Below are positions 3,092 through 37,515 of a DNA stretch of 64,000 bases, in pieces. Below the pieces are notes generated by a model that did not search any database, was not told the origin of the DNA, and was given only the letters and a program-made list of their open reading frames with translations. How positions within the stretch are numbered: the stretch's first letter is position 1; each line of letters starts with the position of its first letter. Source of the stretch: an uncultured Bacteroides sp. (lineage in GTDB: Bacteria > Bacteroidota > Bacteroidia > Bacteroidales > GCA-2748055); contig CAYXUD010000080.1 in NCBI GenBank assembly GCA_964467775.1, forward strand, positions 1,586 through 65,585. The letters are read 5' to 3'. The translations under genes were made by a program, and so were the position numbers.

Positions 3092-5348
3092 GATATGATT
3101 GAATCCCGCTCGCGCAATCCCCGTAGCTTTGCTGCGGGGTAAGCGAGCACAAATAAAATAATTTATGGATCGAAGATTCCTCGGAGCTTGCTCCGAGGAG
3201 CTTCAATACTGCCTCCCGGTATTTCTCAGGTACCAGGTCAAAACCAAGCGACAACAGGTTGGCGGTGGGTGTATTGTTGCTGTAATAGTTCATCGATTCG
3301 ACAAAGTATTCCTTGTTGTAAGCCACCTTCATGGAATCAGCCAGTGCCTCAAACAGTGCTTCATCTTCCTGAAAACCAAGCAGATTGGCAAAGCGCTGCA
3401 TGATCCTGGCATCATGATAATAGAAAGCAGTTCCGATCAATGCACCACTCGTAATCCTGTCCGGATCGCTGCTGTGGATCATCGACATTTCTTCAGGAGG
3501 CATACACCAGTCACCATAGGTGTCGCGAGGCATCAGGAAACCGGTCATATACCTGTTTTGCATATAGTGCATCCATTTTTTCATGGCAGGATAATGTTCA
3601 TGAACGGCATCTATTCCTCCAAACTGGTCATACAGCATCTCGGCAACCATGATCCCGGTTCCATCCCAGGTCACATTGTCATTATATAATCTCCAGTATG
3701 CAGGGCTGACATCAGGAATACTTCCCTCCCCGGTCTGGTCATCGCGCATATCAGCGAGCCACTTGCGGTAGAGGTTATAATTGTTGAACATGTAACTCTC
3801 ACCCCGGCATCCCGTGGCCCTGTCACCCAACCAGCCCATGCGCTCGTCGCGCTGCGGACAGTCGGTTGGCATACTCCGGTAGTTTCCCCTGATACCCCAG
3901 ACGGCATTTTTATAGACCTGGTTGAGGAGATCACTGGCACAGTCGAAAGTGCCGTTTGTCCGTACGTCGTTATTCACGACGCAACCCAGGATTGTGTTCA
4001 GGTCTGGTTTGCCGGGATACCCTCTGACTTCAACATACCTGAAGCCATGATATGTAAATTTTGGAACCCAGGTTTCCGGTCCATCTCCTTTCAAAGTATA
4101 CATATCGGTAACCTTTGCACTCCTGATATTGTCGAGGTAGAGTGTTCCATCCTTTCTTAAAGTTTCCGCAAAGCGCATCACCACCCTGTCTCCCTGTTTA
4201 CCTTCAACCGACAACTTTACCCAGCCCACCATGTTTTGACCCAGGTCATAGATAAAAACACCCGGGCTCACCTCATTCACCGATACCGGCTTGATATAAC
4301 CCGTCACCCTGATGGGTTCGATCAGCGGTGCTGAAAGCTTTCCCGGGGGTGCCATGACCAGCTCAGCCTTCAACCAGTTTATCGGGGTGTATCCGGGTTT
4401 ATCCCATCCGTAGAGATCCTTCCGCGCATCGTATTTCTCTCCGTCGAATTCGCTGTTTTCCCTAATGGGGCCATTGGCGGTTACACTCCAATTTTCATCG
4501 GAAATAATAACTTCATTGCTGCCATCGCTGTATTCGATATTAATCTGCATGATAAGCTTTGGGAATCCGTAATGCTCCATCTTCATAGGAATGTTATTGC
4601 GCATGGCAAAATAACGTCCATTCCCGAGCACAATTCCAATGGCGTTCTGTCCAATCTCAATCATGGAGGTGACATCAAATGAATTGTAAAAAACCCTCTT
4701 ATTGTACTGGGTGGCATCGGGTGCCAGCACCATATCGCCTGTTTTTTCGCCATTCAGGTGCAGTTCGTACAATCCAAGGCCACTGATATGGGCAGTAGCA
4801 GATTTGACCTCTTTTAAAATTTCAAATTCCCTGCGGAAATAGCGGGCCGCCAGTTTGCGGAATTCCCCTTCAATATCATCTCCGGCAAATGATCTGTCCA
4901 GCCCTATCCATCTGCCCTTCCAATCCTCTTCATTCAGCAGTCCCATTGACCAATACGCCGTTTCAGACCATCCAGATTCAACATCATTTTTACTCCATAC
5001 CTTTACCTTCCAGAAACATGCCTGGCCTGATTTCAGCGGGACACCACTATATTTTATGTTGAGGGACTGGCAGGACTCTATTATTTTTGAATCCCAAAGG
5101 GTTCCATTGTCATTTTCGAGATCTTCGGAGGTGGCTGCAACCAAAACCCGGTATGCCGTTTGTTCTTCTCCCCTCTGTTCCGAAACGGATTGCCAGCTTA
5201 ACGAAGGTTGGAGTATATCAATACCAGAAGGGTTCAATCTGTTTTCACACAACAGATTTACGGGTGAAATTCCTCCGTTTGAATGAGGGTTCTTACTGCA
5301 GCTGAGTAAGATAAGCGTGAGCAGGAAAAGGATTTGAATTGGTTTCAT
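3078..5348 (-). CDS. alpha-L-rhamnosidase (GH78), N-terminal fragment; last ~41 codons are element-encoded or out of frame
   Basis: 756-aa ORF with a lipoprotein-like signal (MKPIQILFLLTLILLSCS). QPSLSWQ...AYRVLVA is the GH78 N-terminal domain pattern. It is contiguous in sequence logic with 2186..3091. The tail LKLLGASSEESSIHKLFYLCSLTPQQSYGDCASGIQ is a translation of the repeat. Confidence 0.85.
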   Translation of the reverse strand: MKPIQILFLLTLILLSCSKNPHSNGGISPVNLLCENRLNPSGIDILQPSLSWQSVSEQRGEEQTAYRVLVAATSEDLENDNGTLWDSKIIESCQSLNIKYSGVPLKSGQACFWKVKVWSKNDVESGWSETAYWSMGLLNEEDWKGRWIGLDRSFAGDDIEGEFRKLAARYFRREFEILKEVKSATAHISGLGLYELHLNGEKTGDMVLAPDATQYNKRVFYNSFDVTSMIEIGQNAIGIVLGNGRYFAMRNNIPMKMEHYGFPKLIMQINIEYSDGSNEVIISDENWSVTANGPIRENSEFDGEKYDARKDLYGWDKPGYTPINWLKAELVMAPPGKLSAPLIEPIRVTGYIKPVSVNEVSPGVFIYDLGQNMVGWVKLSVEGKQGDRVVMRFAETLRKDGTLYLDNIRSAKVTDMYTLKGDGPETWVPKFTYHGFRYVEVRGYPGKPDLNTILGCVVNNDVRTNGTFDCASDLLNQVYKNAVWGIRGNYRSMPTDCPQRDERMGWLGDRATGCRGESYMFNNYNLYRKWLADMRDDQTGEGSIPDVSPAYWRLYNDNVTWDGTGIMVAEMLYDQFGGIDAVHEHYPAMKKWMHYMQNRYMTGFLMPRDTYGDWCMPPEEMSMIHSSDPDRITSGALIGTAFYYHDARIMQRFANLLGFQEDEALFEALADSMKVAYNKEYFVESMNYYSNNTPTANLLSLGFDLVPEKYREAVLKLLGASSEESSIHKLFYLCSLTPQQSYGDCASGIQSYRGKN
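3098..3207 (+). mobile_element. 110-bp hairpin-rich repeat element (MITE/PATE-like), copy 1, inside the GH78 gene
   Basis: Sequence: attgaatcccgctcgcgcaatccccgtagctttgctgcggggtaagcgagcacaaataaaataatttatggatcgaagattcctcggagcttgctccgaggagcttcaat. It is 109/110 identical to 32944..33053. Termini are inverted (ATTGAA...TTCAAT). Hairpins lie at 3119..3139 and 3179..3198. Confidence 0.85.
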
Positions 5349-29524: not shown

Positions 29525-29794
29525 CTATTCTATAATCTTCAAGATTTCACCGGGAATAACTTTTCCATTCGGGATGGTTAAATGACCCTCGCAGCTGTTA
29601 TTTTGAAGGTTCAGATCATTGCTGTCCGTTATTTCTATTTCAGCAGTTATCCTGAAGCTTCCATGGGACGCCTTCCAGTTTTTCCCGTGTATGCCCTGGG
29701 CACAGGCCAGTTCCATGCCCCCGACCGGGATTGCTAAAGATCTTGAATTACGCGAGCGCAGTCCCCGAAGTTCTACTTCGGGGTAAGCGAGCAC
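29525..29794 (-). CDS. C-terminal remainder of the GH3 protein (second half of a CARDB-like beta-sandwich); first ~17 codons are element-encoded
   Basis: MLAYPEVELRGLRSRN is a translation of the repeat. SRSLAIPVGGMELACAQGIHGKNWKASHGSFRITAEIEITDSNDLNLQNNS continues the domain begun by ...IIRFYVDGKEVAWYH at the end of 29950..32250. Confidence 0.65.
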   Translation of the reverse strand: MLAYPEVELRGLRSRNSRSLAIPVGGMELACAQGIHGKNWKASHGSFRITAEIEITDSNDLNLQNNSCEGHLTIPNGKVIPGEILKIIE

Positions 29795-29851
29795 AAATAA
29801 AATAAGAAATTAATCGATGATTCCTCGCAGCTTGCTGCGAGGAGAGTCAAT
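29742..29851 (+). mobile_element. repeat element, diverged unit V (first unit of a tandem dimer)
   Basis: Sequence: cttgaattacgcgagcgcagtccccgaagttctacttcggggtaagcgagcacaaataaaataagaaattaatcgatgattcctcgcagcttgctgcgaggagagtcaat. It has the same length as the canonical unit and aligns to it without gaps. Both hairpins are retained through paired substitutions. Confidence 0.8.
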
Positions 29852-29954
29852 CCCGCTCGCGCATTCCCCGTAGCTTTGCTGCGGGGTAAGCGAGCACAAA
29901 TAAAATAATTTATGGATCGAAGATTCCTCGGAGCTTGCTCCGAGGAGCTTCAAT
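29852..29954 (+). mobile_element. repeat element, canonical unit C (second unit of the dimer; shares the junction 7-mer with unit V)
   Basis: 103 nt identical to 32951..33053. It follows GTCAAT of unit V directly, without its own left ATTGAAT. Confidence 0.85.
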
Positions 29955-32250
29955 GATACCATGCCACTTCTTTCCCATCCACATAAAAACGGATAATATG
30001 CGAATCGCCCATATTCGAAGTTGCTGTTCCGTTGTTGATAAGTGAAGCCATCAATATGACTTCTTCTCCATCCTTGGGAAAAGCAGGAATGGAACGAATA
30101 TTTTTCACTGAAAGGTCCGCTTTGCCTTCTGCCCCAGTCATGTTAAATCCAGCTTTCAGGGTCAGGTTGTCCGAAGACCCACCCACCCGCACAATGAATT
30201 CACCGGCCGGAACTTGGTAAGATCTCTTTACTTCATTGTATATGTACAACTCTTCGGGAGAAAGGGTGAATACAATCTTTTTAGTTTCACCCGGATGTAG
30301 AAAGACTTTCTCAAAACCACGTAATTGTTTTTCGGGCATCTGAAGATCAGGGGTAATTTTCCCGGTTGACAGATATAACTGCGCCACCTCTTCGCCGGCA
30401 ACTTTTCCTGTATTTTCGAGGTCGAATGAAACTTCAATGATTTCTCCCACCCTGGCGTCTGCCCTGTTCACCTCAATATTCGAATATTGAAAAGTGGTGT
30501 AACTCAATCCAAATCCAAAAGCAAATTCAGGTTCCAGATCTTGCGAATCGAACCAGCGATATCCTACGCCTCTGCTTACCATGTGACGAAAATCAGAACT
30601 AATGGGGATTATCTGCCCGTCATTTTTAGGAATCGTAGCCGGCAGTTTTCCCGAAGGGTTGTAATTGCCGAACAGAACATCGGCAATGGCACGCCCGCTT
30701 TCCTGTCCCGGATAGAACGCATAGAATAGTGCCTTCACATTGGTTATGACCTGGGTTACACTGCAGGGTCCTCCCGAAATCACTACCAGAATTATATTTG
30801 GATTTACCTTTGCTATTTCATTGATCAACTCATTCTGAATCCCGGGAAGAAGAACTGTCCCTGATTGCCTGTCAGGGCGGGTAACCAATCCACCTCCTTT
30901 CTGATCAGCCTCTTTGTCAAAGAAGTATCCCTCTCCTTCCACAGTACTGTCAAGCCCGGCCACAAAGATTACATATTCTGAATTTGCCGCAGCTTCCAGT
31001 GCTGCCCTGAATTGTGATTTATCCTGGTCATTGATGTTGCAACCTTTTGCATAGGATACATGCGTTTTGCCAAGTATGGATGTAACAGCCGTTTCAACGG
31101 ATATGCGATATGAGGGTAGTACCTGTGAACTGCTGCTCCCATCCAGTGGCAAATGTGCGGCATTGGGACCAATCACCGCTATCTGCGTCAGCTTTTCCTT
31201 ATCAAGAGGTAAAATGTTTCCATTGTTCTTCAGTAGCACAAGACTTATCAAACCACTCTCGTACACCAGTTTACGGTGTGCCTCGCAGTCGATCACACTT
31301 GTGGGAACCTCCGGTACACCATCTATCATCCCGGATATGATCTTTGTCCGAAGCACATTCCTTGTTGCTCTTTCAACCAGTGCGCTGTCGAACCTGCCCT
31401 CCCTCACTCCGACTGGCAGTTCATTGATATACAAATCGTTGCCTTCGCAGAAATCCAGTTCAGCACTCAGGGCTTTTCCTGTTTCACTGAAACCGCCCCA
31501 GTCGCACATGGTGTAATAGTCAAAACCCCATAGGTCGCGCAGCAGCTCTTTTATCAGGTACTTGTTTTCGGCACATTTATCGCCATTCACCCGGTTGTAG
31601 GCACACATGATTGAAAATGCTCCTCCAATCTGTATGGTTCTTTTCCAATGATATCCCCAGAATTCAACCAGGCTACGCTCATCGCTCAGGTAATTGTTGG
31701 TCCTTCTGTTCATTTCATAGGTGTTCAGATTATAGTGTTTCACAGAACCAAACACAGAAGTAGTATTTTGCCCGAGCACAAAGGCTTCAGAGATCCTGCC
31801 ACCCAAAAAAGGATCTTCCCCGATGGTCTCGGGAGCGCGGCCAGTACGCGGATCAATAAGTAGATCGAGTGTGGGTCCGGCAATACGGTCTCTGCCCCGT
31901 GAAGCCTGCTCCATGGAAATGGCCCTGCCCACCCGTGTGATCAGGGCAGGATCCCAGGTGGCCGCCATGGCGATGGTTACAGGAAAGCATGAGAATCCGT
32001 AGGCTCCGTTTCCTATACCGTGCGGGCCATCGCTCCCGGTAAATTGAGGAATTCCCAAACGTGGGGTTCCATCGGTGAGGTAATACAACTGTTCAATCTT
32101 CTCCTGCATGGTCATCCCGGACAGAAGGGTATCGAGCCTTTTTTCCAGTGCACTTTCAGTTTCAGTAGGCATCGAAGAACATTGAATTACCAGAAAACCC
32201 GACAATCCAATCAACGGGAAGAACAAAATGTGGGACACTATTTTTTTCAT
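29950..32250 (-). CDS. GH3 beta-glucosidase-type glycoside hydrolase, truncated in its C-terminal CARDB-like domain by the repeat dimer
   Basis: Signal MKKIVSHILFFPLIGLSGF (ATG 32250, overlapping the upstream stop as TAATG). GSDGPHGI, KHYNLN, MCDWGG and a Fn3-like domain are GH3 features. The ORF stops at a TGA formed inside the element terminus (..tat cat TGA agc). Confidence 0.85.
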   Translation of the reverse strand: MKKIVSHILFFPLIGLSGFLVIQCSSMPTETESALEKRLDTLLSGMTMQEKIEQLYYLTDGTPRLGIPQFTGSDGPHGIGNGAYGFSCFPVTIAMAATWDPALITRVGRAISMEQASRGRDRIAGPTLDLLIDPRTGRAPETIGEDPFLGGRISEAFVLGQNTTSVFGSVKHYNLNTYEMNRRTNNYLSDERSLVEFWGYHWKRTIQIGGAFSIMCAYNRVNGDKCAENKYLIKELLRDLWGFDYYTMCDWGGFSETGKALSAELDFCEGNDLYINELPVGVREGRFDSALVERATRNVLRTKIISGMIDGVPEVPTSVIDCEAHRKLVYESGLISLVLLKNNGNILPLDKEKLTQIAVIGPNAAHLPLDGSSSSQVLPSYRISVETAVTSILGKTHVSYAKGCNINDQDKSQFRAALEAAANSEYVIFVAGLDSTVEGEGYFFDKEADQKGGGLVTRPDRQSGTVLLPGIQNELINEIAKVNPNIILVVISGGPCSVTQVITNVKALFYAFYPGQESGRAIADVLFGNYNPSGKLPATIPKNDGQIIPISSDFRHMVSRGVGYRWFDSQDLEPEFAFGFGLSYTTFQYSNIEVNRADARVGEIIEVSFDLENTGKVAGEEVAQLYLSTGKITPDLQMPEKQLRGFEKVFLHPGETKKIVFTLSPEELYIYNEVKRSYQVPAGEFIVRVGGSSDNLTLKAGFNMTGAEGKADLSVKNIRSIPAFPKDGEEVILMASLINNGTATSNMGDSHIIRFYVDGKEVAWYH

Positions 32251-32996
32251 TACAGGCAGGTTACTCCGTATAGCATATAGCCGGTATCGTTCATGGCCGA
32301 TATCAAATCGATGGATCTGATTTCTACATCGGGCCTGGGATTTTCCCATGTATAACGGTATAATTTCAACACAAAACCCAGGTCTTTTACCCTGGGATTT
32401 GAACCCTCCCATGCCAGTTCAGCTCTGGGTGGAAATACTGAATTCTTCGGATGGAACCACCAATCTTCAACCTCGATCCGGCTTCTGATGGTGATGGTTT
32501 TTTTCCGGTTATCTGCATAATTGACCACAATGCGGACAACTTCTGTCCCTGTTTCACTCTCCCAGGCTGATGAATGCAAGAAGCATAATTCATCAGCCAT
32601 GTGATGAACAGGTATGCCGGAAATTTCCTTCGGATAATTGATGTGGGACATTTCGAGGGAAACCTTGCTGGCCAGCTGGATAATGCCACGGGCATCGAAA
32701 TTCACACCGTTAAAATCATTGATTCCAGAAGGAATGGGTATGGTATTGCCTGGTTTGCCATGAATCTCTTCACTCAAAGAAAAATTATAATAAGGCTCCA
32801 GATCAACATATCTGCCATCGTCAGGGAATTGCCGCGGGACAATGGCGCGCAATGGTTTTGTTCTTATTTGCATCATTTCTTTTTTTGATTGGACCGGAGG
32901 CAACTCCTTATCGAAATCGTCGCTGGTATAGGTTATTTTAGTAATTGAATCCCGCTCGCGCATTCCCCGTAGCTTTGCTGCGGGGTAAGCGAGCAC
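32250..32996 (-). CDS. C-terminal accessory domain of the interrupted GH-A hydrolase (unassigned beta-rich domain); first 17 codons are element-encoded
   Basis: MLAYPAAKLRGMRERD is element-derived. The host part is SITKITYTSDDFDKELPP...VNFDARGIIQLAS...LCFLHSSAW...VNYADNRKKTITIRSRIEVEDWWF...WENPRPDVEIRSIDLIS. The frame joins 33049..33957 if 103 nt are removed. Confidence 0.6.
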   Translation of the reverse strand: MLAYPAAKLRGMRERDSITKITYTSDDFDKELPPVQSKKEMMQIRTKPLRAIVPRQFPDDGRYVDLEPYYNFSLSEEIHGKPGNTIPIPSGINDFNGVNFDARGIIQLASKVSLEMSHINYPKEISGIPVHHMADELCFLHSSAWESETGTEVVRIVVNYADNRKKTITIRSRIEVEDWWFHPKNSVFPPRAELAWEGSNPRVKDLGFVLKLYRYTWENPRPDVEIRSIDLISAMNDTGYMLYGVTCL

Positions 32997-33053
32997 AAAT
33001 AAAATAATTTATGGATCGAAGATTCCTCGGAGCTTGCTCCGAGGAGCTTCAAT
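32944..33053 (+). mobile_element. 110-bp repeat element, copy in the GH-A gene
   Basis: 109/110 identical to 3098..3207. Hairpins at 32965..32985 and 33025..33044. Termini ATTGAA...TTCAAT. Confidence 0.85.
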
Positions 33054-33957
33054 CTCCCGTGAAAATAAGTACCTGTGTGGTACGTGGCCCAATGATGTCG
33101 TGGTATACCTCATCGCGCTGCCCCTGAACCACAAAAATTAATCCAGGTCCGCTTTCGCCCGCATCATCCAGATATAAAGTATATTCCCCGGGATCGCCAA
33201 AGCCCCTGTTCATCATCATGACGCTGAGTCGGTCGCCATCCTGTGCGCCATAAACCAGGAAATCATCATTGGAAACTGTCCCCTTCAGGAAGGTGCCTGT
33301 AAAATATTTTGCCACAAACTCCATGTGCCGGTATGATGCCCTGGGGGTCATGTGGGCTCCGTCGATCAGGCTGAAATCGGATTCTTTGCGGTCGCCTCCA
33401 TGTTCAAACATGCTCCAGCAGGCGGCATAGGCAGCTTCGTACTCCATGCACCAGCCCAGTACCGCCCCGAACATTTGTCCGTTCCCCCACGTGTGCACCT
33501 TGGGGCCTCCCTTGGAGTTGTACTCTCCAATTCCCCAGATCAGCGCATCAGCGCCGGTACGATTGTGCAATGCATTCACCTGGTCTGTTTTAGCTTTTGA
33601 TTTCACGATGCGTTCCAGGAAATCGTTGGCTCCTTCAATGGCCGGGTCGCCGTCACCCTGGGGATAACGGTGCCAAGACAGACCGTCGCAATAATAATAA
33701 TCTTTGTCCGGGACTTTGATCGCGATATCGTTTTTCCCTCCAAACAGGTCATCGAAAGGCACATCGAAATAATCGCAGAAATCGGGACCATAAATCTTTA
33801 TGGTGGGATCCACCGCCTTCATGGCGGCAGCAATGGGTTTGAAATAGCCTTCGACAAACTCCCCCATGGTTGAAAGGGGCGGACGGTTGGCCTGCAACCA
33901 GGGTTCGTTACCAATGTTCCAGTATTTAACCGGCGATACACCCTCATGTTTCTCCAC
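33049..33957 (-). CDS. clan GH-A (TIM-barrel) glycoside hydrolase, central fragment (family not assigned)
   Basis: VKYWNIGNEPW (NEP acid/base motif). Paralogous along its length to 34298..35620. It stops at the TGA in the element terminus (gga gat TGA). The apparent GTG start follows a frameshift. Confidence 0.75.
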   Translation of the reverse strand: MEKHEGVSPVKYWNIGNEPWLQANRPPLSTMGEFVEGYFKPIAAAMKAVDPTIKIYGPDFCDYFDVPFDDLFGGKNDIAIKVPDKDYYYCDGLSWHRYPQGDGDPAIEGANDFLERIVKSKAKTDQVNALHNRTGADALIWGIGEYNSKGGPKVHTWGNGQMFGAVLGWCMEYEAAYAACWSMFEHGGDRKESDFSLIDGAHMTPRASYRHMEFVAKYFTGTFLKGTVSNDDFLVYGAQDGDRLSVMMMNRGFGDPGEYTLYLDDAGESGPGLIFVVQGQRDEVYHDIIGPRTTQVLIFTGD

Positions 33958-34301
33958 GTTAAAAACCGGACCAGTTCGGCGACAGCTTCAGCAGGTTGGT
34001 ATTGGGAAACCTGCAGAATGGGTACAGCTCCTACAGCCTGGATTTTTTGAACCCAATCCAACAGTGTTTCCTTCGATGGCAGGTTCTTGTCATACGCATG
34101 GCCTCCAATCCGGATGGTTTTCATTCCGCACTCCATGGTAAGGTTCCATGCCTGCTCGCCCGGATCATTGTACCATACATTGGTGCCAACCAGCAGTGGG
34201 CTGATCTGTTGCGCAATGGAATCAGTGGCAAGGAAAATAAATATCCCGGCTATGAGTTTAGAAGCACAGGTTTTCATGATGGATTGTATTGAAGATTTCA
34301 T
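33819..34301 (-). CDS. N-terminal fragment of the same GH-A hydrolase (signal peptide plus first ~113 codons real, remainder out of frame)
   Basis: MKSSIQSIMKTCASKLIAGIFIFLATDSIAQQISPLLVGTNVW...IRIGGHAYD...ILQVSQYQPAEAVAELV parallels QEISPWLFGQNHW...VRIGGNGYE...ILQVPRKFSAEEVTGLV of the paralog. Frame is lost at the A5/T5 run 33961..33965. The start overlaps the upstream stop (ATGA). Confidence 0.7.
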   Translation of the reverse strand: MKSSIQSIMKTCASKLIAGIFIFLATDSIAQQISPLLVGTNVWYNDPGEQAWNLTMECGMKTIRIGGHAYDKNLPSKETLLDWVQKIQAVGAVPILQVSQYQPAEAVAELVRFLTWRNMRVYRRLNTGTLVTNPGCRPTVRPFQPWGSLSKAISNPLLPP

Positions 34302-35620
34302 TGTATATCAGGTGGCAGGTTCTTCAGATTGTGGATTAATCCATACGTGTATTGCTTCAGAATTTCTCCTGTTTCCGATAATACAAACATCAGGGTGGTC
34401 TGCCCGGGAATGGTACCACTGATCATCTTATCAAGGCCGGCATCGGCATGGATGATCAAGGGTTTGGGGGACATGCCATCTTTGTTCAGTATAAGATCGA
34501 ATTCAAAATCTTTTTCCCTGTCCCGGTTTAATATCATCACGACAATTTCATCATCGCTTGCCGTGGCGATGGACCTGACATAGGAGTTGCTGGTTGCAGA
34601 AGGCAGGAAGTTGCCTTTCATATGTGAAGCCATCATCTGCGTGTGGTAAAAGCTGGATCGCGGATAGAATTCGGAGGGCAGGCCAAGAAATCCAAAATCG
34701 GTACGAACTCTGTCTGTTTCACTGAGGCACCATGGATTCACTGTAAAGGCTCCGTATTCAAGACCAATGCCATACATCTCAGCGATGAATTGTCCGCCGA
34801 GAAACGAAGGATTTCCAATACCCGAGATCTCCCTGTCGGGATTGATGTAGGTCACATTCACTTCGGTAAGTCCCCAGAGCAATTCTGCATCTCCCGTACG
34901 ACCATGTTTCCTGTTTGCCTCCTCCATCATTTCTGTCAGTTGTATGACCTGTCTACGGATGCTGAAAGGGCCCGAGAAAACCACATCATCGCGATCGAAA
35001 TCCCTGCCATTGGGATAGTTATGAAAGGTGAATCCATCAATGATCCAGTTCCCCTTTTCATCCTTGCCCGTGATATCTAGTCTTCCTCCGCACAGCGCCT
35101 CATATGCCTCTTTATATAACGTACAGGCGTCAAACACAAATATTTTGATCGTCGGATCAGCTGCTTTCATGGCAGGGGCAAGTCTGATCAGGTAGGTGTA
35201 CACTTCATCTATTTTTCCCTTGTTGTTGCAGATGGGTTCATTGCCGATGGACCAGAACTGAACAGGTTCCCTTTCAGGGTTATGGTTTAATAAATTCACC
35301 AAGCCGGTCACCTCTTCTGCTGAAAACTTGCGGGGTACCTGCAAAATCGGCTCTGCACCAATTCCGCGGATGGAGTCAATCATTCCAATCAGTGTGTGAT
35401 TGTCAGGAAAGCGATGTTCATACCCGTTTCCCCCGATGCGCACCATCCTGATGCCGCTCTGCCCTACTTTTGGCCAGAGCATGGATAGATATCCAGGGCG
35501 TTCACCCTCATCCCGGGTGTCCATCCAGTGGTTCTGCCCGAAAAGCCACGGACTGATTTCCTGCCCATTCACTCCTGAAGCGAATGCCGCAAGCACTAAA
35601 ATTAATCTTAGGAATTTCAT
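34298..35620 (-). CDS. clan GH-A (TIM-barrel) glycoside hydrolase, intact paralog
   Basis: 440 aa with a signal peptide. FWSIGNEP acid/base motif and GLTEVN candidate nucleophile strand. Confidence 0.7.
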   Translation of the reverse strand: MKFLRLILVLAAFASGVNGQEISPWLFGQNHWMDTRDEGERPGYLSMLWPKVGQSGIRMVRIGGNGYEHRFPDNHTLIGMIDSIRGIGAEPILQVPRKFSAEEVTGLVNLLNHNPEREPVQFWSIGNEPICNNKGKIDEVYTYLIRLAPAMKAADPTIKIFVFDACTLYKEAYEALCGGRLDITGKDEKGNWIIDGFTFHNYPNGRDFDRDDVVFSGPFSIRRQVIQLTEMMEEANRKHGRTGDAELLWGLTEVNVTYINPDREISGIGNPSFLGGQFIAEMYGIGLEYGAFTVNPWCLSETDRVRTDFGFLGLPSEFYPRSSFYHTQMMASHMKGNFLPSATSNSYVRSIATASDDEIVVMILNRDREKDFEFDLILNKDGMSPKPLIIHADAGLDKMISGTIPGQTTLMFVLSETGEILKQYTYGLIHNLKNLPPDIQ

Positions 35621-35622
35621 AG

Positions 35623-37515
35623 TTAGTTTCGTATAATTTTCATGGACTCAACCAGGGAAAACTCCGGAGCAGTGAGCTGCACAAAGTAGATACCGGATCT
35701 CATCACGGGCTTTGAACGGTCAACCATACTGAAATAGAGGGTGTACCTCCCTAAGGTCAGTTCACCTGAAAAAAGTGTATCAATGTACCTGCCGGCCATA
35801 TCGTATATCTTAATATACACCTCCATGGGGGATGGTACATTTACCATTAAAGAAAAATCCTCGGTAAATGGAACTGGGGCTACCTCCCAGCTGATCATTC
35901 CTTTGCCTGGAAGTGGCTGGATTCCCGTAATGGTGGGATCTGACAGCTGATGGACACCCACATCCAGGGATTCAGGGTTTACCGGATTGCCCCAGAAATC
36001 GGTCATTTCACCGTCAAACCAGTAGTTGCCTTTCATCTGGGAGAGGGGCAATCCTGCATGAAGGCAAGTACTGCCAGGGCTGAGAAGGTACCCATCCAGG
36101 GAAGAGATCTCCTCCTCCCCGCTGCCTGGATCAACCAGGCCGGGATCTCCTTCCACGGGATTCTGGTTCACAGATGCAGCTGAGGATGGGTAACCCACCG
36201 GGCAATTGTGACTGAATCCAGCGGTCTGTCCATCAGAGCGGATCACCAGTGCCCCTCCTCCTTTATTGATGACAATATTATTATAGAGCTTTGCCGTTCC
36301 CAGTGCTTCATTCACCAGGACCGCCTCGATACCCTCGCCGATGTAAAAAATATTGTTATGGATGATCCCTGAACCTCGCGGTGAGACCCACCTGGAAAAA
36401 TCAAGTATATGTTTTTCCTTTGCTCCGTCGTTCTGGCTGATATTGTAGCGCACGATCGCGTCCTGACTGGAACCGTAGACCAGCATAAAGCCCCCTTCAT
36501 TGCTGCGGGAATAAATATACTGCACCAGGGTATGGTAAGCCTCCAGGTCGGCATCGAAGGCCTGGCCATCCATGCTTCCGCGGGTATCAAAAACCCGGTT
36601 ATGCCGGATAACCGCTTCATCGGTGCTTTTTACCCATATAATCACGCCATACTCAACCAGTTCTTCGGCGGCATTGTGGTCTTCAACGGCTACATTATAT
36701 TCGATAAGTGGTTTGTGGGCATAACGGATGATCATCCCGTCACCGGCACACCTGCTCACCGTATTGTTCCTGATCACCAGGTTGGTAATGGGCCGTTCTC
36801 CCCTTGTTCCCTTATTGCCGTTGGTGAAAATCCCCACCCTCACAATATCCGTGGTCTCGCAGTTCTCTGTCAGGATATTATCAAACCGTGTATTATTATC
36901 CCCGATGATCCCTATCCCCCCTGTATTCTTGCCGATCATCTCGAAACTGTAACGGCCGAAAATATCGTGCATAAGGAGACTCTCCAGGTGAAAATGGCCG
37001 TGGCTGCCTCCATTTGCTGTGATCAACACACCCAGCCGGCTTGCCTGTCCGGATGCAGGACTGGTGATCTCCAGGTTGGAGAGGCACCAGTGACTGATAT
37101 CTTCCAAAGTGATCACAGCTCCCACGGCGCCATTCCCATCGATCTTTGGCCTCGGTCCCTCACCGTAACTGCTCAGGGTAATGGGGTATTTTTCTGTGCC
37201 CGAACCATTAAGGACCAGCTGTCCTTCCCAGCTTTCACCCGCTCTCAGCAGTACCGAATCCCCCGGGTTAAAGATGATCTCATTCAGCCGATCAAGCGAT
37301 TGCCAGGGGGTCTCTCTGGAATTCACAGGATGACTGTCCCTCCCTCCCATGGCATCGAAGAAGTAAGCAAAGCCTGCAGGTGCACTGATAGAAGTACAGC
37401 AAACCGCCGAATATAAACTTCCAACGAATGATCCCTTCGGGAAACCGGAATGGGCCAGAAGGATGAAAAGAAAGATGGGAGGAAAAACCCACTTTTTGGA
37501 TTTCGGCAATTTCAA
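35623..37515 (-). CDS. right-handed parallel beta-helix protein (pectate-lyase-fold) with T9SS C-terminal sorting domain
   Basis: 630 aa with repeated hydrophobic-N-N-x turns (IRNNTV, YNISQND, IHNNIFY, LYNNIVIN). C-terminal CTD ...VYIKIYDMAGRYIDTLFSGELTLGRYTLYF...GIYFVQL. Confidence 0.7.
   Translation of the reverse strand: MKLPKSKKWVFPPIFLFILLAHSGFPKGSFVGSLYSAVCCTSISAPAGFAYFFDAMGGRDSHPVNSRETPWQSLDRLNEIIFNPGDSVLLRAGESWEGQLVLNGSGTEKYPITLSSYGEGPRPKIDGNGAVGAVITLEDISHWCLSNLEITSPASGQASRLGVLITANGGSHGHFHLESLLMHDIFGRYSFEMIGKNTGGIGIIGDNNTRFDNILTENCETTDIVRVGIFTNGNKGTRGERPITNLVIRNNTVSRCAGDGMIIRYAHKPLIEYNVAVEDHNAAEELVEYGVIIWVKSTDEAVIRHNRVFDTRGSMDGQAFDADLEAYHTLVQYIYSRSNEGGFMLVYGSSQDAIVRYNISQNDGAKEKHILDFSRWVSPRGSGIIHNNIFYIGEGIEAVLVNEALGTAKLYNNIVINKGGGALVIRSDGQTAGFSHNCPVGYPSSAASVNQNPVEGDPGLVDPGSGEEEISSLDGYLLSPGSTCLHAGLPLSQMKGNYWFDGEMTDFWGNPVNPESLDVGVHQLSDPTITGIQPLPGKGMISWEVAPVPFTEDFSLMVNVPSPMEVYIKIYDMAGRYIDTLFSGELTLGRYTLYFSMVDRSKPVMRSGIYFVQLTAPEFSLVESMKIIRN

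Follow-up and report, generated by a model that had tools for sequence, protein, structure and literature searches.

A short hairpin repeat interrupts a GH-A-type glycosidase gene in an uncultured Bacteroides sp.

A 64,000-nt stretch of DNA from an uncultured Bacteroides sp. (contig CAYXUD010000080.1 of GenBank assembly GCA_964467775.1, positions 1,586 to 65,585; hereafter the window) contains, at positions 32951-33053, a 103-nt hairpin repeat that separates two open reading frames (ORFs) of a glycoside hydrolase (GH) gene. We consider it likely, with a probability of roughly 0.8 that covers our conditional account of its movement as well, that this unit is a short, non-coding, non-autonomous mobile repeat, and that it inserted at an ATTCA sequence and broke a gene for a GH-A-type enzyme. 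The glycosidase gene is a decaying pseudogene and represents ordinary insertional gene loss, not a new way to build a protein. The repeat is an undescribed family of the conventional bacterial hairpin-repeat kind, widespread in Bacteroidales.

The insertion and the gene it interrupts

The element, its parts and the pieces of the host gene are as follows.

32951..33053, minus strand: mobile hairpin repeat copy of 103 nt (repeat search and deletion test; identical to 29852-29954)
33047..33053, minus strand: 5' terminus ATTGAAG, which holds the TGA at 33049-33051 and pairs with the CTTCGAT box
33025..33044, minus strand: hairpin A, CCTCGGAGC-AA-GCTCCGAGG (folding; compensatory changes in 32 family members)
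33015..33021, minus strand: conserved CTTCGAT box, partner of the 5' terminus (family alignment)
32981..32999, minus strand: most conserved core, TTTGTGCTCGCTTACCCCG, containing the GTG start of ORF 32250-32996
32965..32985, minus strand: hairpin B, CCCCGCAGC-AAA-GCTACGGGG (folding; its sequence resembles hairpin A; in other copies an IS110-family insertion sequence enters here)
32944..32950, minus strand: host target ATTCAAT, left after the element and single in the empty site of the homologue
33966..34301, minus strand: N-terminal fragment with signal peptide (ORF list and alignment)
33961..33965, minus strand: T5 run, T6 in the intact homologue, a 1-nt deletion (comparison with homologue DNA)
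33588..33600, minus strand: 13 nt present in the window and absent from contig L033 (contig alignment)
33054..33960, minus strand: middle fragment, predicted TIM barrel plus most of the beta-sandwich, including WNIGNEP (alignment and model)
32250..32950, minus strand: C-terminal fragment, predicted last beta-strand of the catalytic module, linker and ~190-aa domain of unknown function (alignment and model)

Read on the minus strand, the unit consists of ATTGAAG, hairpin A, AAT-CTTCGAT and an AT-rich linker, followed by TTTGTGCTCGCTTA, hairpin B, AATGCGCGAGCGGG and the host ATTCA. The sequence at the upstream junction is ...ACG GGA GAT TGA AGC TCC TCG GAG CAA GCT CCG AGG..., and the upstream ORF (33049-33957), which has no stop codon of its own, ends at the TGA (33049-33051) within the ATTGA of the element. 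The start of the downstream ORF (32250-32996) also lies inside the element, at the GTG of its core (MLAYPAAKLRGMRERD), after which comes the host-encoded SITKITYTS. Since the 103 nt shift the reading frame (1 mod 3) and the TGA of the element ends translation, the gene is broken at the DNA level. Deleting 32951-33053 gives one open frame, ...QVLIFTGDSITKITYTSDDF... / ...QVLIFTGD-SITKITYTS..., with ...GGGAG joined to ATTCAATTAC... at the element-free junction. Because ATT is found at both ends, any placement between 32948-33050 and 32951-33053 is equivalent. The upstream junction also occurs, with 98 nt of the element attached, in a metagenome contig of independent origin (L033, Ga0307420_1013371).

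Nine homologues (P0001-P0009) of 638-672 aa were retrieved when a database was searched with the joined protein; their identity is 67-81% and their query coverage 100%. All nine are single polypeptides that hold the catalytic and the C-terminal domain together, and they are colinear and gap-free over the junction ...LIFTGD/SITKI... (consensus QVLIFKGDSITKINYTS). The site is empty in the DNA of the closest homologue (L004), which reads GGTACTTGTTTTCAAGCGAG-ATTCAAT-AACCAAAATAAA, or GCGAG-ATTCAAT-AACC around a single ATTCAAT; the window flanks, once joined, read GGTACTTATTTTCACGGGAG-ATTCAAT-TACTAAAATAAC. These comparisons support the reading of the 103-nt element as an insertion into a once-continuous gene.

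The AlphaFold model of P0001, built from a 39-sequence alignment and confident for residues 20-430, consists of a TIM barrel followed by a beta-sandwich, with its best Foldseek matches in GH51, GH30, GH44 and GH39 (E 1e-17 to 1e-12). WNIGNEP, which includes the NEP acid/base motif, is invariant in the alignment of homologues. Clan GH-A enzymes have a (beta/alpha)8 barrel with an NEP motif and, in the GH30/39/44/51 group, a beta-sandwich attached to it. The model and the alignment thus support a clan GH-A-type glycoside hydrolase, secreted in view of the signal peptide, as the product of the host gene. A sequence search of the PDB with the restored enzyme gave no match, and in Pfam neither gene fragment had one, the only hit being a weak GH44 match to the paralogue. 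In the model, the junction maps to D406/S407 of P0001, where the chain turns from the penultimate sandwich strand (E397-404) into the last one (E407-414). Most homologues are short forms of 432-446 aa without the C-terminal accessory domain, and these still hold SITKINYTSDDF... beyond the junction, extending 25-40 residues past the insertion point. As modelled, the element therefore cuts inside the catalytic module, ~25-40 residues ahead of the start of the accessory-domain linker. The accessory domain itself (~190 aa) has no Pfam match and is poorly modelled (pLDDT, the predicted local distance difference test score, ~45).

The initial annotation, made from the letters of the window, had anticipated much of this: a length of 1 mod 3 whose removal rejoins the frames, an insertion into a once-continuous gene, and the GH-A catalytic fold, each of which agrees with the results above. 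Its question whether homologues have the catalytic and C-terminal domains in one polypeptide is answered by the nine fused proteins. A C-terminal ORF that is always a stand-alone gene was not seen among the homologues. Its placement of the insertion between the catalytic and accessory domains has to be revised, as the site falls inside the beta-sandwich of the catalytic module, and its account of the damage holds for the element and leaves out the 1-nt deletion at 33961-33965 described below.

It could be argued that the two ORFs are naturally separate genes with an intergenic repeat between them, or that the junction is an assembly artefact joined through the repeat. The many homologues of 432-446 aa that lack the C-terminal domain would fit the first possibility, and the frequent termination of short-read contigs inside the repeat (L033, L039, L042) the second. 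However, the short homologues retain the residues that follow the junction, the upstream ORF borrows its stop from the element and the downstream ORF begins in it, and the flanks form one colinear gene matching nine fused homologues; no false join would produce such a match. We regard both possibilities as highly improbable.

The gene carries further lesions. Where the homologue L004 has a run of six T (CGGTTTTTTAACGTGGAG), the window has five (CGGTTTTTAACGTGGAG), and this 1-nt deletion shifts the frame and splits an N-terminal 160-aa ORF (33819-34301), which contains the signal peptide, from the middle ORF. Contig L033 aligns with window positions 32956-36243 (3.3 kb) with zero mismatches and has both the frameshift and the insertion in common with it. 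The frameshifting 13-nt deletion, present in L033 only, marks a population variant with a third inactivating lesion. These lesions are not general assembly noise, because the twenty other window genes that we checked with Pfam gave full-length domain matches.

The repeat family and its recent burst

Repeat search of the window identified four copies, at 3098-3207, 29742-29851 (81% identity), 29845-29954 and 32944-33053; two 39-41 nt halves of the unit occurred three times each, versus 0 expected in 100 shuffles. As the initial annotation had stated, the copy at 32951-33053 is identical to 29852-29954 and differs by one base from the copy at 3105-3207 (GGGGAATG versus GGGGATTG). The other copies are located in two further glycosidase genes.

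29749..29954, minus strand: head-to-tail dimer in the CARDB-like tail of a GH3 gene (repeat search and deletion test)
3105..3207, minus strand: copy in the (alpha/alpha)6 catalytic domain of a GH78 rhamnosidase gene (Pfam and deletion test)

In the dimer, the canonical unit (29852-29954) stands directly upstream of an older, 81%-identical unit (29749-29851), and deleting both (206 nt) gives an 893-aa GH3 ORF with the CARDB-like tail. The GH78 copy splits the Pfam domain Bac_rhamnosid6H at profile position 255-257; its deletion gives a 1050-aa GH78 protein whose junction is colinear with PDB entries 6i60 and 3w5m. Head-to-tail dimers that share one ATT were observed in the window (29749-29954), L087 and L129. 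The dimers suggest that the 5' end of the element (ATTGA) can itself serve as a target.

At 32248-32252, in the sequence TAATG, the stop codon of the glycosidase pseudogene and the ATG of a downstream GH3 gene overlap. One minus-strand operon comprises the short-form paralogue (34298-35620), the pseudogene and the GH3 gene, with repeat insertions in two of its genes. The whole operon appears to be decaying, its GH3 gene itself carrying two units.

Across the family, the plan of the element is ATTGA, hairpin A, a TCGAT box, an AT-rich linker, the conserved core, hairpin B and ATTCA; within the unit, the distance to the nearer end is 6 nt for hairpin A and 17 nt for hairpin B. Folding is strong on both strands, as DNA or RNA (z about -5). 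Among the 32 family members, stem pairs change in compensation (GGAGC/GCTCC, GCAGC/GCTGC, GCGGC/GCCGC, GTAGC/GCTAC and GAAGC/GCTTC), and the terminal ATTGAN pairs with NTCGAT, alignment columns 1-6 with 34-39, column 6/34 covarying between A-T, T-A and C-G. The terminal inverted repeat extends over just 5-6 nt (ATTGAA/TTCAAT) and no further. ATTCA (TGAAT on the plus strand) accompanies essentially all copies, and every complete copy is bordered by an invariant ATT at either end. GAAGCT and CTTA/CTAA stand ahead of the hairpin feet, and GT[AG]G is absent. Rfam searched on both strands, with E up to 10, yielded no match to the element. Within it we detected no sigma-70-like promoter and no intrinsic terminator and, by eye, no exact Bacteroidetes TAnnTTTG motif.

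Members of the family are 102 to 162 nt long, without any mod-3 preference. Two alternative 3' ends are found, some variants have an additional hairpin module after GGGGAA, and others are deletion forms or head-to-tail dimers. Recombination has paired the 3' ends (GCGCGAGCGGG and GCGCTCGCGTA) with different 5' halves. The extra hairpin unit is 21-50 nt long, ends in (C/T)CAAT (for example CCGAGTTTACGAGCTCGGCGAAGCCAAT) and is placed after GAGGAA or GGGGAA; such modular variants were seen in L010, L011, L030, L032, L049, L056, L057, L072 and others. L051 (JANTFK010000046.1) contains, from base 4362 of its reverse strand, a variant of ~390 nt in which ~280 nt of unrelated, apparently non-coding sequence lies between hairpin A and the 3' end AATGCGCCCGCAAAATTCA.

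Scanning JGI metagenome contigs with the 19-nt core yielded 42 loci, about 27 of them true copies, and a degenerate 5'-hairpin pattern occurred at at least 92 loci in GTDB genomes. Among the GTDB matches listed, the hosts were Bacteroidales, Bacteroidia or Rikenellaceae-type metagenome-assembled genomes, with one contig binned as Cloacimonadota. A blastn search of PLSDB plasmids gave no match to the element. The family is normally intergenic: of the 61 evaluable copies among these listed matches, 59 were counted as intergenic and only 1-2 lay inside a long ORF, and 55 of the listed copies had no orientation bias relative to flanking ORFs. One GTDB copy (L067, 3770-4618) interrupts a degenerate tnpB (IS605 OrfB-like) gene, with no tnpA nearby.

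The situation is different in the lineage of the window, where about half of the copies in the population are intragenic, versus the 1-2 of 61 elsewhere. A 108-nt stretch identical to the copy at 32951-33053 was found at eight loci, and the tandem copy in the window makes a ninth; the identical-copy loci come mostly from the metagenomes that yielded L033. In-silico removal of the element restores real genes at many of them. Intragenic copies in the sense orientation are found in the GH78, GH-A-type and GH3 genes of the window and in L034 (MacB/FtsX), L041 and L017; a MacB_PCD domain spans the junction of L034 once the element is removed in silico, and L041 was assigned by eye to a TonB-receptor-like C-terminus that has no Pfam match. 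Antisense copies are found in L011/L030 (hybrid histidine kinase), L016 (CobW-like GTPase), L023 (saccharopine-dehydrogenase-like) and L045. The member in L016 (1557-1663 of Ga0233437_1000025) is 102 nt long and lies in a linker of the gene; it adds 34 in-frame amino acids to the encoded protein and leaves the ORF intact.

With at least nine loci bearing 100% identical copies, about half of the copies intragenic, and both orientations represented, the data support a very recent burst in this lineage, in line with the recent spread proposed in the initial annotation. The same burst also broke the neighbouring GH3 gene (twice) and the GH78 gene. A fraction of about one half inside genes is what one would expect soon after a burst, because selection has yet to remove the damaged alleles.

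Could the element be removed or skipped during expression, as a small intron-like RNA, by bypass of the T4 gene 60 type, or by a stop and restart with cooperating fragments, with the glycosidase still being made? At 32951-33053, GAT precedes the in-frame TGA, a stable hairpin follows directly and GAT recurs at the 3' junction, resembling take-off and landing codons. Four of the six sense intragenic copies (32951-33053, 29852-29954, L034 and L041) share the codon phase NAT/TCA, with an in-frame TGA and an in-frame GTG or ATG; since this phase makes up 21% of ATTCA sites in the coding sequence of the window, P is about 0.02, a post hoc value with n=6, and we take the enrichment as a lead only. 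Translational bypass was rejected as a candidate: it suits the copy at 32951-33053 and not the GH78 copy, which is in another phase and has no matching codons. The intragenic antisense copies, and the almost exclusively intergenic position of the family in other genomes, likewise fit poorly with skipping of any kind. Furthermore, Rfam gave no ribozyme or intron match, 103 nt is far below the size of known self-splicing introns, and a restarted C-terminal fragment would have no signal peptide. The T5 frameshift in the host gene and the 13-nt deletion of the sister variant in L033 also speak against excision of the element from the RNA. A strand-specific RNA element is thus ruled out by the orientation-independent behaviour at the DNA level together with the extra host-gene lesions, and we consider rescue of the enzyme during expression extremely unlikely.

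The same features raise the question of whether the element acts as, or is selectively kept as, a clean 'gene splitter', with an immediate in-frame TGA, an AT-rich linker and an in-frame GTG or ATG. We find this very doubtful, although it would be of interest: combined with precise excision by a Y1 enzyme, it would amount to a reversible switch for carbohydrate-utilisation genes.

Mode of movement

The element would, in the account that we favour, move in the form of single-stranded DNA, mobilised in trans by a HUH/Y1 transposase of the IS200/IS605 type or of the type formed by repetitive extragenic palindromes (REPs) and REP-associated tyrosine transposases (RAYTs). Such a Y1 enzyme would recognise the hairpins, and insertion would take place next to a pentanucleotide (TGAAT, plus strand) without true target duplication. 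This part of our explanation is tentative, unlike the insertion, the empty site, the family, the burst and the additional lesions, which the sequences show, and we give it somewhat less than an even chance. It is favoured by the covarying, mutually similar hairpins just inside both ends, in combination with the lack of real terminal inverted repeats; by the invariant pentanucleotide TGAAT (plus strand) at one end and the similar TCAAT that closes the other; by the pairing of the element end with an internal box and the occurrence of head-to-tail dimers; and by the targeting of the repeat hairpins by an IS110-family insertion sequence (IS). IS110/IS1111 elements are known to insert into REPs. 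The IS in question is 1317 bp long, encodes a 339-aa DEDD transposase (Pfam PF01548, PF02371) and has ~270 nt of non-coding sequence ahead of the ORF. Three different repeat copies (loci L010, L012, L019 and L022) carry this IS within their hairpins, at GCT(A/C)C^G(G/A)GGAA, and both junctions are visible in L012. In L010 and L022 the right flank of the IS comes from another repeat copy, which may reflect a rearrangement or an assembly join.

Several observations weigh against this account, or against the insertion history in general. A six-frame motif scan of 0.94 Mb of fetched loci and the window detected no Y1/HUH transposase associated with the element, nor did the fetched sequence contain an autonomous element with the same ends. 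A DDE transposase that duplicates a 3-bp target site would explain the repeated ATT just as well, and the filled and empty sites do not discriminate between the two. Copies differ in the candidate guide GAAT behind hairpin B, whereas the target remains ATTCA. As for the insertion itself, no empty-site allele from the same population was found, the best intact relative being 81% identical, and three contigs with the exact neighbouring paralogue either end before the lesions or represent the same filled allele.

The sole Y1 gene in the HUH/Y-motif scan is unrelated and lies in a chance-match locus, no RAYT gene was found beside any copy examined, and the longer variants of the repeat carry no transposase. 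Copies without hairpin B, considered as an autonomous parent, proved to be deletion variants or the 390-nt variant with its non-coding insert. In favour of a Y1 enzyme, Quentin et al. 2018 (PMC6006769) described a Bacteroidetes-specific TnpA-Y1 subclass, 2.6, that is flanked by atypical secondary structures, without GTAG, recurring in the genome. None of the subclass 2.6 REP sequences listed in the literature matches the element, and for Bacteroidales elements of such a kind we found only general REP/RAYT work.

Alternatively, the same element with the same gene damage may be a classical miniature inverted-repeat transposable element (MITE) that was moved by a DDE transposase, with ATTGAA/TTCAAT termini and a 3-bp ATT duplication. 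The ATT flanking every complete copy on both sides, the 6-nt inverted repeat formed by the termini ATTGAA...TTCAAT, and the length of ~100 nt and burst dynamics typical of MITEs are all consistent with this. However, the inverted repeat covers only 5-6 nt without extension, against the ~10 nt or more of a classical MITE, and selection on the internal hairpins and on the pairing of the terminus with TCGAT would be superfluous for a DDE enzyme. In addition, the CA after the 3' ATT is matched by GA after the 5' ATT, so that an end mimicking the target fits better than a duplication. A parent IS was not found in the fetched 0.94 Mb. We therefore consider a DDE-driven MITE unlikely, if clearly the stronger of the alternatives, and retain movement by a Y1-type enzyme as the favoured mechanism.

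Implications and comparison with known systems

For annotation, the GH78, GH3 and GH-A-type genes of the window are best treated as pseudogenes, not as paired short enzymes or new split architectures, and estimates of the organism's capacity for carbohydrate degradation should be reduced to match. The repeat family, absent from Rfam, is abundant in uncultured Bacteroidales; it breaks short-read assemblies, whose contigs end inside it, and seeds spurious ORFs from its GTG. It also provides a naturally occurring example of a bursting REP-like element, with roughly half of the copies still intragenic, that could be used for studying how such elements move in Bacteroidota and how IS110-family elements home to their hairpins.

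With T4 gene 60 bypass the element shares, at one site only, matching GAT codons and a hairpin that follows a stop codon where the untranslated gap begins, and IStrons (group I intron plus IS605) likewise insert after a pentanucleotide inside genes. It differs from both in that other copies have no matching codons, in having no ribozyme, in its antisense copies and in the extra lesions of the host gene. Classical MITEs (Correia/NEMIS, RUP, ERIC, Nezha) and Rickettsia palindromic elements (RPEs) are similar in size (~100-150 nt), burst and gene disruption. Classical MITEs, however, have long terminal inverted repeats, which this element lacks, and defined duplications (TA for Correia). The in-frame 34-aa insert of L016 is like an RPE; RPEs are typically in frame, whereas the 103-nt copy at 32951-33053 shifts the frame.

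The resemblance to REPs, to the bacterial interspersed mosaic elements (BIMEs) that contain them, and to REP doublets forming hairpins (REPINs) with their RAYTs is broader. Like these, the element is short, non-coding, high-copy, normally intergenic and occasionally found in genes, and it shows compensatory upkeep of hairpins, mosaic modules, tandem arrangements and targeting by an IS110-family IS. Unlike the REP/RAYT system, in which a conserved tetranucleotide of the GTAG or CGTC type marks the foot of a 20-40 nt palindrome and the copies flank a single-copy RAYT gene, it has no such tetranucleotide at the hairpin foot, its ends are fixed (ATTGA...ATTCA) beside a fixed pentanucleotide, and it is in a burst, with about half of the copies intragenic in this lineage and no RAYT gene identified. 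In place of the inverted REP doublet of REPINs, it has two different hairpins in direct order with an AT-rich linker.

Palindrome-associated transposable elements (PATEs) of the IS200/IS605 family (IS608/ISDra2) differ in that no tnpA/tnpB partner with matching ends was found for the element, its candidate guide-target pairing has no covariation support at the 3' end, and a 3-bp duplication remains compatible with its junctions. In other respects they are alike: hairpins lie just inside both ends without a real terminal inverted repeat, one end pairs with an internal box near a hairpin, and a specific pentanucleotide adjoins the insertion point (TGAAT on the plus strand here, TTGAT for ISDra2), with the similar TCAAT at the other end. 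As in these elements, precise loss of the unit would restore the gene.

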